Source of the DNA: Eledone cirrhosa
Lineage: Eukaryota
Assembly (NCBI GenBank): GCA_964016885.1
Contig: OZ024745.1
Span: 87,668,001 to 87,732,000, forward strand
Direction of reading: 5' to 3'
Length of the DNA: 64,000 nucleotides
The position numbers and the translations under genes are program-made. The notes beneath the pieces were generated by a model. That model worked only from the letters and a program-made list of their open reading frames with translations, did not search any database and was not told where the DNA came from. This document shows, in pieces, positions 29,971 through 35,506 of this stretch (its first letter is position 1; each line of letters begins with the position of its first letter).

Positions 29971-30310
29971 ATAAATGTAAGTATGTATGTATACGTACAT
30001 ACATATATGTATACAGACGTACAGTAGCATGCATATATATATATATATATATATATATATATATATATATATATATATATATATATATATATATATATAT
30101 ATATATACATACAGGTACACATACATATATGCACGCATCAGTTTAGCGGACGCTTATTATAACGCCGCTTTGTTCGTTTGTAAACAAACTGAACAGCCTG
30201 AATTTATGCCATACGGTGTTAAGGCAACCACGTCACCTTTTTGTTCAACACTGACACAAGAACGATGTACTAGTTTCAAGCTTGTTAGCTATCATCAGCA
30301 CCGTATACCC
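29971..30310 (-). mobile_element. Dispersed hammerhead-bearing repeat homologous to the satellite monomer
   Basis: The minus strand is colinear with the satellite downstream of its hammerhead (cttgt..aggtg..ccgtatg..tgtttaca..atgcatgctactgtacgtctgtatacatat). Confidence 0.75.
30262..30304 (-). ncRNA. Minimal type I hammerhead ribozyme
   Basis: acggtg CTGATGA t-agct-aaca-agct-t GAAA CTAG TA / catcgt. Confidence 0.85.
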
Positions 30311-30888
30311 ACCGTATACCCATATATATATATATTGATATGAACGCTTCCAATATTTAACCCTGTAGGCACAATTATTGTGCAAAATGCACAACCTTTT
30401 GGCAACTAACTATATGTATCGCTTATCCCTTTAAACCTCTTCTTCTCTCTCACAATACTTAGATATTATATATATATATATATATATATATATATATATA
30501 TATATATATATATATATATATATATATATATATACACACCGCTTGGTCGAAATACAGTTTGGAAGTTTTACCATTCTGTAGCCACTTTTCACTTTACCCA
30601 TCTCATTACAGTTGAAAATTGTAAACTTGACTGTCACCAGAAGAATATGAACCTGAATATTGCGAAAGCATGAAAGTACTTGTTCAATTAACTCTTAACA
30701 TTTAATATTCAACCATACTATTTCATTCTAATACCATTATAAATTTTAAAGGATTGTAAATAAAACGAGTAAATCAGACAAAGTTAGAATTACTTTTATT
30801 AATATAATCTTCTATACACAATCATACACACCCGTGTATATTTATCTCTCTATATATATATCTATATTCCTATTGTGTATATACCAAC

Positions 30889-33800
30889 ATGTCTGGAAAT
30901 CAACAAATGAAATCAACAGAATCAGAAAGAATTCTAAAGGAGATATCATCGAAATTATCAACACTTATCACGATGATTGACACACAATCCTCTATTTTAA
31001 AGGAAATAGACAAACATACGGAAAACTTATAACTGAACATATAAACTCTGAAATTATACTTAGCTGAAATTATACCAACAGTTATCAAAGATACAAGAGA
31101 AAGCCTACCACAACCCCTTTGGATATCAGAACTAAACGAAAGAAATTTGGAAAACAAAACACATCGAATAAGAAAAGACATGGAAAATATTTCTTAACAT
31201 AAGAAAACAAAATTTCTGGAAAGCATACAAATGCGAAAAATATGTCGAAACACATTCGAAATGGCTCTCTCTAACGGCACCATACTCCCTCGAAAATACC
31301 TAATTTCAGAAATTGCAGGAGAACCAGAAGAAGAAACAAAACTCCGATGGGAACTTACATTAACAAAAATCAGGACCGACATCTTCATTTCTCAATGTAA
31401 ACAATCCCGCTACAAAGCCAAATATGAAGCTATTGATGACCAAATTGAAGTTGAAATTTCAAAGCTAACGACTGGTAATATAGCTGAAAAACTACGAGAA
31501 CTATGGATCAGAGATATCTCAAAAGAAGAAAGCAAATCAAGAAAGTTTTGGCAGCAGAAACAATTATTTCTCGACGAATATGCTGCAAATTACGGTAAAG
31601 ACTCTGGAACTCTGAGAAAAAGCATTAAAAGTGGACAATCTCACCAACACAATATACGCCAGAACACGTGCCAACACAAACACTCACCTTACCTTGAATC
31701 AAAGAAGAACTACGGTAAGAACTCTTCGCTTTTTCTACAAAAACACCCTAACGCACACAACATGAACAAAAAGCACAAACACGATAGATATTTCTTTGAC
31801 CAGACCATGAGAAGTAGAAAAACCAGGAGATCATTCTCAAGATCTCAACAGAGACTACCCACAAGGAACGGGGATAAAAAACGTAGAATAACCAGATCAC
31901 TCTCAAGATCTCAACAGAGATTACCCACAAGAAACTGGGCGAAAAAACGATCTAAACCTGAATGCAAACCTAGGCCATTTCCCCAGATTGTTAAAAATAA
32001 TGCTAACAAGAAATGGAAAAATAATATACATAATACCTAAAATAGGACAGAAAAAAATAACGAAACCAAATATAATATCACGACCAAAAATTCATCAAGC
32101 AAACACCAACAGGAATATAAATCCTGAACAGAGAAAAATCCATTTTTTAACGTCAGGAAACAAAAACCGGAAAAAGAAAAAACTCCAAGGGTAAACATAC
32201 CCAAAACAACTGAAACGTAGATCCTAAAATAATTAATTTATCCAAAAGAGATCTTGACAATGATGAAATGCAAATTCTGTCAAAAGGACTGAAATTCACA
32301 CCAACTCCAACAGTCAACCACCAAGAACTGAAGGAGGATACCCAAGAATTATGTCGAAAATTACGTCTTGTAGAATTCTTCGCTGATAAAAGTAATGAGA
32401 GTGATGAATCACTAGTAAAGAATAAATCAAATTTCACTCCGCGAAAAGCAAGAAATATCTATCTCGACCAATACATTGACATCCTGTCTAAATTTCCTCT
32501 TAGACGTAATACCTATTAGACGTAATGTTAGGCCAAACATTAACAAATCAGAAATGTCTGCACTTAAACGTATATAAAATGATAAAACAATAATAATTAA
32601 ACAAGCAGATAAAGGGACTGTAGTTGTTATAATGGATGCTGAATACTACAAAGATTTGGTTGAGGAACAACTGAAAGACACAACATTTTATCATGAAATA
32701 CCGTAAAATATAGACCACAACATCATGAAGAAGATCAACAACCTGGCTTCAAAATACCACAACTCACTTACTAATAAGAGAAAAGACTACATCACCAATT
32801 TTGAGCCAAAACCCAGCAACCTGTACGGCCTACAGAAAGTTCATAAGTCAAAAGAAATACAACTGGCAGTAAAAGAACAAAACAGTGAGTATATTAAATT
32901 ACTACACCCAAAAGACTTAAAACTTAGACCTATTATAGCTGGTCCAACATGCCCTACCCACCGTCTAAGCAATTTTGTTGACATTATTTTGAAACCACTA
33001 TGTATTCACATACCCAGTTTCATCCGGAATTATATCGACTTCCTCTCAGCATCTTCCCTAAACCACGGAAACGAATTCACTTCTACTTAGTATTGATGTT
33101 GTAAGCCTTTACACCTACATTTCACATGATTTAGGAATGAAGGCGGTTAAATACTGGGTGGAAAAACATAGAGAAGTGATTCACAGCGCCATTTATAGGA
33201 GACGCAGTCAAACTTATTCTGGAAAACAACATTTTCTTCTTCAATGGAAAGCATTACATCCAAATTAGAGATACAGCGATGGAAACGAAGTTTGCTCCCG
33301 TTTACGCGAACTCTGTAATGGGATACTTAGAACAACAACTCTACCAAGAAATATGGGTAAAATATAGTACTGACTTTAGAAAGTACATTGAAAATTCTTG
33401 GAAGAGATACCATGACGACTGTTTCATAATCTGGACAGAATCTCTAGATACTCTGGATGAGTTCAATATCCTCCTGAATAACCTACACCCATCTCTCCAA
33501 TTCACAAAAGAGATGAGTAGACCAAATTACCATTCCTAGATATAATGGTAATCAAAAACGACACTACCATTACCACGTATATATATTATAAACACACAGA
33601 CACCCATCAATATCTGAATTTTAAGTCGTGCCATCCACCTCATACAAAACGCAGCATCCCATACTGCCTAGCCAGAAGAATTTGTACCATTGTAGAATAT
33701 ACGAACACCAGGAACAAACGCCTAACAGAACTAAGAGAATTGTTACTGAAACAAAAATACCCATCTCTACTTATAGAAAATGGCATACAGCGGGCTATAA

Positions 33801-34140
33801 AAATACCTATACAACAACTTAGGACAACCAAGAAGATGAAACCAAGAACTGGTCATACCATTTATAATGACAAACAACCCATGTCACCAGAATATCTTCA
33901 ACACTGCCAAAGCAAACCTACCGATCATTGCTCAAAGTAATGAATTAAAAGGCTTAATCACAGATCGATATTTGACACTTAGTAAAAACCAGCCGAAAAA
34001 GTTGAAGAAATTACTAACAAAAGCAAAGTTTGACCTTAACAACTAAGACCAATCATTCACTGTATCTAAATGCAATGATAGTCGATGTGACACATGTCAA
34101 TCCATATACACCGGTCAATATATGAAAACAAAAACTGGAT
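30889..34140 (+). pseudogene. Penelope-like element (Neptune-like) with long N-terminal region + RT, degraded; truncated after the Cys linker, endonuclease missing
   Basis: LSKGLKFTPTP, ADKG, LYGLQKVHK, LRPIIAGP, WKRYHDDCF, YYKHTDTHQYL..SCHP, KCNDSRCDTC; multiple stops and frameshifts. Confidence 0.88.
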
Positions 34141-35506
34141 TCACCGAACATTTATTATAATGCTTGGTGTCTTTGTAAACAAACATCCCGTATTAAGTCG
34201 TAGTGTCTAGCAACCTTCGTTGCTCGTTTGTTCAACACTGACAAAGGAACGCTGTACTAGTTTCAAGCTTATTAGCTATCGTCAGCAACGTATACCTTCC
34301 TGCCAGATTGTTGAACGTATATACTTACCTTATACATATTAACGGCTGAGTAGCCCAATTTGGATATCGAGTGGGTTAATCGGCCGGGTGCACCGAAAAC
34401 GATAAGCGGAAAAAATGAAACGAAATTTCATTTCTCACTCTTAGTACAGCTGTTACTTAAATATAAGTATGTACACGTACATACATATATGTATACAGAC
34501 GTACAGTAGTATGTATATATATATACATACATGCACACATATATATATGTACGTTGCTGACGATAGCTAATAAGCTTGGAACTAGTACAGCGTTCCTTTG
34601 TCAGTGTTGAACAAACGAGCAACGATGGTTGCTAGACACTACGGCTTAATATGGGATGTTTGTTTACAAATACACCAAGCATTATAATTTTTAAGCCAAA
34701 AGATGCGTAATGATCTACTGTTCATGCTCATATAAGTTTTATCTCAGTTAAATAAAGTAGAGCCGCGCTGTACTGTCGTAAACAGACGATTGCCAACGAA
34801 AACACGACCAAAACAATATTACTAAACGGACTACTGTCCGTTTAGGATACATACTATTGTACGTCTGTATACATATATGTATGTACGTGTACATATATAT
34901 ATATATATATATATATATATATATATATATATATATATATATATATATATATATATATATATATAAATGTAAGTATGTATGTATATATACGTACATACAT
35001 ATATGTATACAGACGTACAGTAGTATGTATATATATACATACATGCACACAGATCTATATATGCACGTATCGGTTTACCGAAAATTTGTTATAGTGCTCG
35101 GTTTGTTTGTTTGTAAACAAACAAACAGCCTGAATTACGCCGTACAGTGTTTAGGCAACCACGTCACCTTTTTGTTCAACACCGACACAGGAACGATGTA
35201 CTAGTTTCAAGCTTATTAACTGTATGTCTGTATACATATATGTATGTACGTATACATACATACTTACATTTAAGTAACTGCCGTACTAAAAGTGAGAAAT
35301 GAAATTTCGTTTCATTCTATTCCATTTATCGCTTTCGGTGCGCCCGGGTGACTAAACTCACTCGATATGCAAATTAGGCTGCTCAGCCGTTAATATGCAT
35401 AAGGAAAGTATATACTTTCAGACGTTCAACCATCTGGCAGGCAGGTATACGATGCTGGTATACTAAGAGTGAGAAATGAAATTTCGTTTCATTCTATTCC
35501 ATTTAT
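34141..35506. mobile_element. Cluster of inverted and direct pieces of the dispersed satellite-homologous hammerhead repeat
   Basis: Approximate pieces: minus 34141-34545, plus 34548-34690, minus 34965-35220, plus 35221-35458 and 35461-35506. They share aaaagtgag..gaaatttcgtttc..tttatcg..actcac..tatgcaaattag.ctgc with the satellite. Confidence 0.8.
34249..34291 (-). ncRNA. Minimal type I hammerhead ribozyme
   Basis: acgttg CTGACGA t-agct-aata-agct-t GAAA CTAG TA / cagcgt. The inverted copy at 34551-34593 has GGAA in place of GAAA. Confidence 0.85.

Follow-up and report, generated by a model that had tools for sequence, protein, structure and literature searches.

Vertebrate retrozymes have been described as derivatives of Penelope-like elements (PLEs), with arrays of up to 180-300 units and with proposed mobilisation by PLEs (bioRxiv 10.64898/2026.07.22.740005). 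In that work the mobilising enzyme and the circle template are left as hypotheses, and the same holds for animal retrozymes in the discussion of PMC7229834. Features of PLEs themselves are a bias towards microsatellites, copies that are inverted and 5'-truncated, and a tail carried by one of the ends (PMC8557442); the tail is linked to two internal start sites of reverse transcription and to nicks on both strands (PMC11167929). What is new in the retrozymes of Eledone cirrhosa analysed here is that their insertions display the Penelope-specific tail together with a strict rule of one site per strand.

Retrozyme family and satellite array

Our analysis started from a window of 64,000 nucleotides, by which we mean the whole stretch of DNA presented above, and was extended to related repeats of the genome. 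Genome-wide, the hammerhead core was counted 39,334 times (control 0), corresponding to about 40,000 family repeats. Units are 407-468 nt long with a GC content of about 35%. The four subfamilies represent lineages that are 54-64% alike, and they have in common a series of hairpins made of different letters. In predicted circular folds, 63-71% of bases are paired, with z of -6 to -11 from 12 shuffles each, to which a TA-rich hairpin contributes; hairpins outside the hammerhead were taken from separate folds, as the MAFFT alignment has register shifts. No terminal repeats were found in mapped loci, and reading frames over B and C copies are only repeat-derived. Since flanks are mostly (TA)n, target-site duplications would be hidden. 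The hammerhead in each unit, the short tandem units of low GC content, the copy number and the self-pairing fit the already known class of non-LTR retrozymes. The first-pass annotation had proposed a mobile non-autonomous retrozyme or pLTR family, of which the retrozyme option is supported.

The 5' part of the window is occupied by a satellite of subfamily A:

1..18376, + strand, 3' part of the subfamily A satellite, unit 467 bp
18036..18080, + strand, hammerhead (type I) in the final unit of the satellite, predicted cut after 18073
18301..18307 (unit positions 392-398), + strand, site 1, preferred 3' insertion end, in a small hairpin (its loop and 3' side)
18376, + strand, site 2, preferred 3' insertion end, last base of the satellite

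The full array consists of 147 units (68,628 bp) and starts 50,251 bases upstream of the window, at unit position 49. Its 3' end is the site-2 end of the retrozyme family, followed by (TA)n. It contains 146 hammerhead cores, 144 of which are exact; this uniformity is due to the array being young and grown by duplications. Identical unit pairs are concentrated at a lag of 25 (22 pairs, versus 0-7 at other lags up to 44). Subfamily A is also dispersed (7,794 cores), and the satellite consensus equals the dispersed A consensus at 466 of 467 bases. The satellite is likely a single retrozyme insertion later enlarged in place. Its derivation from a mobile family, as suggested by the first-pass annotation, holds for the retrozyme option; the satellite is a descendant of sister subfamily A, not of the B and C copies found in the window, and the alternative of a pLTR family is unsupported (see below). 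As a separate observation, the A unit is present in three organisms (four contig runs compared), at low depth in two, which has no bearing on expression.

Dispersed copies in the window

Subfamilies B and C account for the insertions that make up the repeats at 29975-35506. Both share 61-64% identity with the 467-bp A unit, and the homology extends outside the ribozyme. Dispersed and amplified states are indeed visible in one window, as had been remarked. The following copies were mapped:

29975..30309, - strand, D1, single arm, closest to subfamily C (85%), end at site 1 into (TA)n
34136..34554, - strand, D2, one-unit arm of an inverted subfamily B insertion, 96% identical to the B unit
34550..34688, + strand, D3, opposite arm of the D2 insertion, hammerhead GAAA changed to GGAA, outer end non-canonical
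34847..34911, + strand, short 5'-truncated fragment, ends at site 1 into a (TA)n tract
34967..35221, - strand, D4, arm of an inverted subfamily C insertion (96%), ends at site 1 into (TA)n
35219..35506, + strand, D5, opposite arm of the D4 insertion, ends at site 2 into (TA)n

An intact hammerhead core is found in only two of the five arms, D1 (30262-30304) and D2 (34249-34291), both with the GUA triplet. D1 is 5'-truncated just before the hammerhead, D4 begins within stem II, and in D5 an internal deletion (35457/35461) takes the hammerhead out; the arm 35219-35457 stops after CTG. The outer end of D2 is non-canonical as well, the canonical one having probably been lost through a later deletion. 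The (TA)n tract that follows the short fragment is entered by D4 from the opposite side.

The colinear blocks said to be common to these copies and the satellite are all present. When reverse-complemented, 34141-34545 gives a colinear alignment with a satellite dimer that scores 164, compared with a maximum of 53 among 300 dinucleotide shuffles (z 26), and 35221-35458 aligns with z 19. Ribozyme-free segments, 35275-35420 (which leaves out the TA-rich part as well) and 34300-34465, still reach z 16.7 and 11.7, so homology outside the hammerhead exceeds that of shuffled controls. In the region 3' of the ribozyme, sequence similarity of three copies is weak (z 2.6, 3.0 and 6.9).

Hammerhead ribozyme

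The repeats carry a predicted type I hammerhead. In the last satellite unit it is composed of stem I AATATTG/CAATATT, stem II GTTGT/ACAAC, the stem III palindrome ACTAGT and the triplet GUU, and all helices previously listed for the window copies were found in them. Pairing is kept with different bases across the four subfamilies: 94.9% of cells are paired, with two-sided changes in 9 of 17 pairs, whereas slid controls reach at most 49%. The set comprises 16 chosen, related sequences that represent four lineages, so shuffle counts are not to be read as probabilities. Stem III stays palindromic between subfamilies (ACTAGT, ACATGT), and in B and C the base of stem II has a U.U mismatch, absent from the first-pass annotation. 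Rfam search of the whole window gave no hammerhead family at gathering score, only TA-repeat miRNA look-alikes, and within 29900-35600 no hammerhead family at E up to 10; the ribozyme call therefore rests on motif and covariation. The GUU triplet, the weak stem III and U.U or A.A at the base of stem II suggest that cleavage would be slow. For all four subfamilies the minimum-energy fold of the dimer is one other than the double hammerhead, which lies within 0.2-4.9 kcal/mol of it.

Conservation of the ribozyme by selection, an earlier suggestion, is apparent between lineages, where covariation is observed. In young dispersed A copies core protection does not reach significance: these have 5 core variants versus 8.7 expected (p 0.14), and paired sites mutate no less than unpaired ones. 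Such a pattern fits selection on copying ability in source lineages better than selection on a host function. If the ribozyme and hairpins were kept for host use of the RNA or of the array (regulatory circRNA, heterochromatin), one could understand covariation over lineages only 54-64% alike and the exact core in 144 of about 147 array units. Young dispersed copies, with a core mutation rate not significantly below the rest, and an array uniformity explained by youth and duplications make this extremely improbable.

Insertion anatomy

Insertions of the family end at either of two fixed sites, which are separated by about 70 nt, and continue into (TA)n. Of the 75 arm 3' ends in 44 A loci, 71 fall on site 1 or 2, and a TA tract follows 67 of these 71; 5' ends are scattered. 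Among 45 inverted A insertions, 40 have one arm per site, four have one odd end and one is cut by N, while use of the same site by both arms was seen in none of the 45. Automatic end calling, which is crude for B and C and hence only supporting, agrees with this for 13 inversions of B and 8 of C, 10 and 18 being uncalled. The loci were not sampled at random but were either top hits or arrays picked by hand. Ten locus-private variants are common to opposite arms in 8 loci, where well under one would be expected; both arms thus come from one template lineage. The family's insertions further include partial tandems, inverted 5'-truncated copies and microsatellite targets. A one-end tail that results from starts at two internal positions is the 'tail' signature of Penelope, and the insertion-end pattern, matching that of Penelope-like retrotransposons, makes copying by a Penelope-type enzyme likely.

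Movement at the DNA level (extrachromosomal DNA circles, unequal exchange or Helitron-like capture) would turn dispersed copies into offshoots of the satellite and the ribozyme into a passenger. It would agree with local duplications within arrays, among them a two-unit block in array L045, and with no readable target-site duplication at the 147-unit array. We consider it very unlikely in view of the (TA)n targeting, of the one-of-each rule and of the ends on the hammerhead strand, fixed at 3' and scattered at 5', to which RNA-structure covariation between subfamilies and the dispersal of B, C and E mostly as 1-3 units have to be added.

Neighbouring Neptune-like element

A PLE remnant is located between D1 and D2:

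30533..30867, + strand, 5' pLTR of a Neptune-like element with its own hammerhead at 30649-30685
30891..34140, + strand, broken ORF of a Neptune-like Penelope element (RT, Cys linker)

RT followed by a CX2-5CxxC linker, a C-terminal GIY-YIG (present in the family) and a hammerhead in the pLTR are Neptune features; the linker, as defined in PMC8557442, applies to Nematis too. In the window copy, the core of the pLTR hammerhead is mutated and the ORF ends before the GIY-YIG motif, where D2 abuts at a TGGA microhomology. The retrozyme contact with this ORF is antisense and replaces its endonuclease end.

The first-pass annotation had considered a pLTR origin of the repeats and their attachment to a PLE ORF. 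With one Neptune-like protein as query, no matching ORF was detected within about 1.5-2 kb of the retrozyme at any of 140 A, B and C loci or 20 E loci. Comparison of the retrozyme with the neighbour's pLTR gave no homology (z at most 1.3), and the 3' regions of three other Neptune-like copies gave no match beyond TA repeats and no ancestral pLTR. The retrozyme as the neighbour's pLTR, which moreover has a hammerhead of its own, was rejected on these grounds.

Among the matches listed, the genome's Neptune-like family has about 150 copies with 99-100% protein identity, many of them with a 775-residue open frame. In this intact family the one-of-each pattern holds for all 10 inverted loci in which both ends can be seen, and its inverted insertions contain tandem copies. 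It is the leading candidate for the mobilising partner, a role for which we see the chances as about equal either way; Naiad elements likewise favour (TA)n and have tails (PMC8557442), which counts against it.

Young variant and tandem arrays

A very young variant is found at 7 loci, with near-identical units. Its inverted insertions include ones of 6.9+13 and 17.6+8 units (20-26 in total), longer than any other run of the variant, as no other single-strand run exceeds 13 units in the assembly; one arm is interrupted by N, and the assembly may lack a longer source array. These lengths favour rolling-circle copying. In insertions L039 and L053, unlike units follow in the same order on both arms, which speaks against a monomer circle, since it cannot yield mixed units.

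PLE priming could also act on linear RNA that is read through from a tandem source and left uncut, the hammerhead cutting rarely or late and array length mirroring the source. Weak hammerhead features, the mixed units of L039 and L053 and the tandem copies inside the PLE's own inverted insertions are in line with it, and uncut RNA is the main template of another PLE (anole) in vitro (PMC11167929). Such a template is nevertheless unlikely, as the fresh 20- and 26-unit insertions lack an equally long source run in the assembly and, of four lineage switches inside arrays, three map to intervals holding the predicted cut site, a weak indication given how wide these intervals are. Other animal retrozymes were shown to form circles (PMC7229834). 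Copying from circular RNA remains our preferred reading.

Two further candidates were discarded. Alternating variants in small arrays were considered as products of dimer circles, L045 being better read as a later two-unit duplication. A-to-I editing does not serve as proof of a single RNA template, because the young variant carries its three A>G changes as inherited ones, at 7 loci, and not as private ones; the contrast of A>G with T>C falls short of significance in A (5 vs 2; 10 vs 5) and does not occur in B, and a Fisher p of 0.003 rests largely on the one cluster of the young variant.

Proposed mechanism

We think it probable that these apparently non-coding hammerhead retroelements are copied into (TA)n by a PLE reverse transcriptase-endonuclease, probably from circular monomer RNA, and that the satellite is one such insertion grown in place. 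Tandem copies would be transcribed on the hammerhead strand, as end polarity suggests. Adjacent hammerheads are predicted to pair via the palindromic stem III and to excise monomers of 407-468 nt, whose ends the long stem I would hold for ligation into circles. The enzyme, presumed from the observed anatomy, would then nick both (TA)n strands and prime on each strand from a different one of two internal RNA sites, which lie about 70 nt from each other, resulting in a head-to-head insertion with one end of each type. With repeated rounds of the circle, an arm could gain as many as about 18 identical units in a single step. Local block duplications, the pattern of which is seen in the array, would finally enlarge one insertion, starting by rough estimate from a few tens of units, to 147.

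A bolder version, for which we find the case evenly balanced, is that a dimer of a Penelope-type enzyme copies one small RNA circle simultaneously from two internal sites of fixed position, one per target strand, yielding up to 12 kb of perfect tandem DNA per event. If so, satellite arrays would be born nearly ready-made via rolling-circle reverse transcription, and the genome would hold both an intact enzyme and a just-active circle for reconstituting the reaction. A mobile RNA would then, provided that PLEs copy RNA circles, be able to start a satellite. With the youngest insertions already at 20-26 units and one having reached 147, retrozyme, PLE and satellite birth are linked in one genome.

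Comparison with known systems

The open-access literature gave nothing on such insertion signatures in retrozymes, nor on cephalopod retrozymes; subscription papers, Repbase and supplements may differ. Animal non-LTR retrozymes of mussel, coral and axolotl (Cervera and de la Pena 2020, PMC7229834), as presented in the main text, resemble the family in tandem type I hammerhead units, GC near 35%, high self-pairing, occurrence from dimers to long multimers and co-existence with PLEs. Two axolotl ribozymes reported there parallel our repeats in that helix III is short and palindromic and helix II has U.U at its base. With 407-468 nt, our units reach the top of the reported range of 150-450 bp or slightly exceed it. 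We found no description there of inversions, of a pair of fixed ends or of targeting to (TA)n, and the words 'tail' and 'rolling' are absent from the main text.

Neptune-type PLEs with a pLTR tail (PMC8557442; PMC11167929) are alike in partial tandems, inverted 5'-truncated copies, microsatellite targets, a one-end extension and a hammerhead a few hundred bases upstream of two ends. The retrozyme differs from PLEs in its apparent lack of an ORF, a tail of 56-75 nt compared with 30-40 reported, and no homology to the co-resident pLTR.

Newt satellite 2 is likewise satellite DNA with a dimer-dependent hammerhead. Its promoter contains an octamer. This promoter is of snRNA type (cited in PMC2220036), and by analogy the octamer ATGCAAAT, retained in A, C and E and present in D5 at 35367, is a putative promoter element; a lineage without it nonetheless spread to 7 loci.

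The link between vertebrate retrozymes and PLEs (bioRxiv 10.64898/2026.07.22.740005) was based on co-occurrence and on similarity to pLTRs, both in Xenopus, and local amplification was favoured for tandems. Here, in contrast, the link is based on insertion anatomy, without pLTR similarity, and long tandems are already present in the youngest insertions.

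Diverged relatives of the satellite

The window, from an animal genome of 3.0 Gb, is AT-rich, dense in (TA)n and carries RTE ends, features that suggest an octopod. The 467-bp satellite, whose unit defines subfamily A, occupies positions 1-18376; beyond it lies a mosaic of retroelement remains, including five retrozyme arms, D1-D5, at 29975-35506. Dispersed and amplified states are thus seen together, as the first-pass annotation proposed, and the colinear blocks and hammerhead helices it named are present. Aligned to a satellite dimer, the reverse complement of 34141-34545 gave z 26 and 35221-35458 gave z 19. 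Homology extends outside the hammerhead, ribozyme-free segments still reaching z 16.7 and 11.7; the segment 3' of the ribozyme matches more weakly (z only 2.6-6.9). The hammerhead core is intact in two of the five arms.

Retroelement and hammerhead features of the window
D1: single-arm insertion, nearest to subfamily C
D2+D3: inverted pair, subfamily B, with odd ends
Between D2+D3 and D4+D5: short retrozyme fragment
D4+D5: inverted pair, subfamily C, one end of each type
30533-34140: broken copy of Neptune-like Penelope-like element (PLE), ~94% nucleotide identity to its family
35586-37437, minus: RT-bearing LINE remnant, presumably RTE-like, with (ATC)n tail, inserted into the (TA)n tract immediately following D5
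37699-37750: 52-bp B/C-family fragment, spanning between end sites 1 and 2 (see below)
22348-22980, 25638-27314, 37729-38358, 45137-47242 (open frame of 701 residues), 50582-52571, 61283-63013: RT-element remains, by motifs presumably Penelope-like
53362-57568, minus: LTR retrotransposon with gag-pol-like frames
~19640-19690, 43575-43625, minus: other type I hammerheads

These other type I hammerheads, found also at L119, L123, L124, L130, L139, L147 and L173 elsewhere in the genome, belong to further families with differing stems that are common genome-wide; their stem III loops include TATATA, CCACTGG, CAATTG and CATTAGTG.

The Neptune-like family (about 150 copies listed, protein identity 99-100%) has a frame of 775 residues with RT, Cys linker and GIY-YIG domain, and its terminal repeat (pLTR) bears its own hammerhead. 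This pLTR shows no similarity to subfamilies A, B, C and E. Attachment of retrozymes to a PLE ORF, a possibility raised earlier, was not observed for this protein: none of 140 A/B/C loci adjoins a match to it. In addition, the 13 other copies with downstream sequence among the matches listed run on into the endonuclease and then a pLTR of their own. Contact between the two elements in the window is therefore secondary. The Penelope-like-looking RT remains are candidate partner enzymes.

Size of the family

Genome search revealed dispersed near-identical copies of subfamily B (96-98%; 2,569 first-look candidates) and C (94-96%), and the satellite unit A is itself dispersed on many contigs (97-99%). 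Older subfamily E (84-88%) was met in a random stretch. Unit identity is 64% for A-B, 61% for A-C, 54% for A-E and 90% for B-C. Exact patterns of the A/B/C core match 39,334 times genome-wide (reversed control, 0), 7,794 of these being A-type. Sampling of 60 evenly placed 10-kb stretches (599.8 kb total) yielded nine A/B/C loci, corresponding to ~45,000 genome-wide (20,000-85,000). By the testable criteria in the accessible part of PMC7229834, these elements fit the class of non-LTR retrozymes.

Hammerhead and RNA fold

Predicted folds of A, B, C and E units have a common hairpin order made from different letters, and a long stem I extension would join both ends of a cut monomer. The motif was not detected as hammerhead by Rfam search. 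Compensatory changes are borne out: in 16 chosen sequences 94.9% of cells are paired and 9 of 17 pairs have two-sided changes. Selection on the ribozyme, as claimed previously, is thus supported across lineages but not within young dispersed A copies, which lack significant core protection. Since these carry 5 core variants versus 8.7 expected (p 0.14), selection appears to work on source lineages.

Stem III is palindromic throughout (ACTAGT in A/B/C, ACATGT in E), which fits the expectation for a double hammerhead in the accessible part of PMC4209133. Three observations count against this reading: isolated cores reach their lowest energy in a fold other than the dimer, B, C and E have a mismatch at the stem II base, and the Rfam search gave no match.

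Octamer ATGCAAAT (unit A 34-41; window 35367) is retained in A, C and E and frequently altered in B. Because it lies within a predicted stem, structural and promoter roles are inseparable. A young lineage of A lost it through three clustered A>G changes, which resemble A-to-I editing, although overall this is not significant.

Ends of insertions

On the hammerhead strand, the 44 A loci examined contain 75 arm 3' ends. Site 1 (unit 392-398) and site 2 (unit 465-467) together account for 71 of these, and a TA tract follows in 67 of the 71; 5' ends are scattered. Both sites differ from the predicted cleavage position (unit 164). Head-to-head inversion is seen at thirty of these loci: 27 combine a site-1 end with a site-2 end, and the other 3 have one odd end. 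Fourteen added A loci, hand-picked from pattern listings (four B/C loci were left out of the tally), contributed 10 and 1, respectively, and six young-variant loci 3 inversions that combine both sites plus 1 cut by N. Pooled, 40 of 45 inverted A insertions use each site once (one end of each type), and none the same site twice. The rule holds for long arrays too, among them:

G000:C1:5738093-5752746: inverted A-type array, 30.7+0.7 units
G000:C18:30950143-30962117: inverted A-type array, 17.6+8 units

The Neptune-like family obeys it in all 10 inverted loci in which both ends are visible. PLE traits in the accessible part of PMC8557442 are a preference for (TA)n, truncated copies in inverted arrangement and a one-sided tail of 30-40 bp. 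In PMC11167929, AT-rich DNA is nicked on each strand, and the tail is set by two internal positions at which RT starts. The two-site, one-of-each pattern is the main evidence for mobilisation by a PLE, whose family it does not name. One inverted young-variant insertion, L333 (G000:C1:85.31 Mb), has flanks other than (TA)n, and each of its two ends meets TTTCAGG.

Template of the insertions

Private variants are common to both arms in eight loci (10 shared, 78 unshared), and a rare lineage is common to both in 4/4 inverted young-variant loci. Both arms therefore derive from a single template lineage, although for some of the shared variants gene conversion from one arm to the other is an alternative.

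The young variant (70 pattern matches, 7 loci) has units identical save a few small changes. Two of its inverted insertions comprise 6.9+13 and 17.6+8 units, and no other young-variant run matches the 17.6-unit arm in length. Such long near-identical insertions are most simply explained by a monomer circle as template. On the other hand, one young-variant arm is cut by N and a source is perhaps missing from the assembly; moreover, loci L039 and L053 require mixed multimers, so both monomer circles and mixed multimers may be used. Chimeric array L331 (G000:C744, 764-5805) has 1.5 units with intact octamer, then 9.5 octamer-less young-variant units; the change of lineage falls within unit positions 164-234, near the predicted cut. 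The young variant may have come from this array, transcribed from its upstream units.

Origin of the satellite array

The array (68,628 bp, 147 units) starts at unit position 49, where it meets, at a CCCAC microhomology, the 3' region of a different element with RT and GIY-YIG. Its other end lies at site 2 and passes into (TA)n, as in an ordinary single-arm insertion. Its consensus differs from dispersed A by one base. Few distinct variants (83, of which 48 shared, in 143 parsed segments) and 22 identical unit pairs at lag 25 point to later block duplications that enlarged a shorter start, by estimate roughly a few tens of units. An array of 31 units at another locus represents an earlier stage of such growth.

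Directly after the satellite (18440-18745) lies a (TA)n-flanked 306-bp palindromic element. Of 60 random 10-kb stretches, 11 contain related sequence, often as inverted pairs; the element may represent another PLE-moved non-autonomous family.

Comparison with known retrozymes

Both the retrozyme class and the idea of its mobilisation by PLEs are already known; in the accessible part of bioRxiv 10.64898/2026.07.22.740005, PLE origin is argued from co-occurrence and pLTR similarity. Here, PLE mobilisation rests on insertion anatomy, with cleavage, RNA circles and partner enzyme predicted. In the accessible texts of the literature searched, no earlier account of insertion-level evidence or young long insertions was found, and within that literature these two are what our analysis adds.
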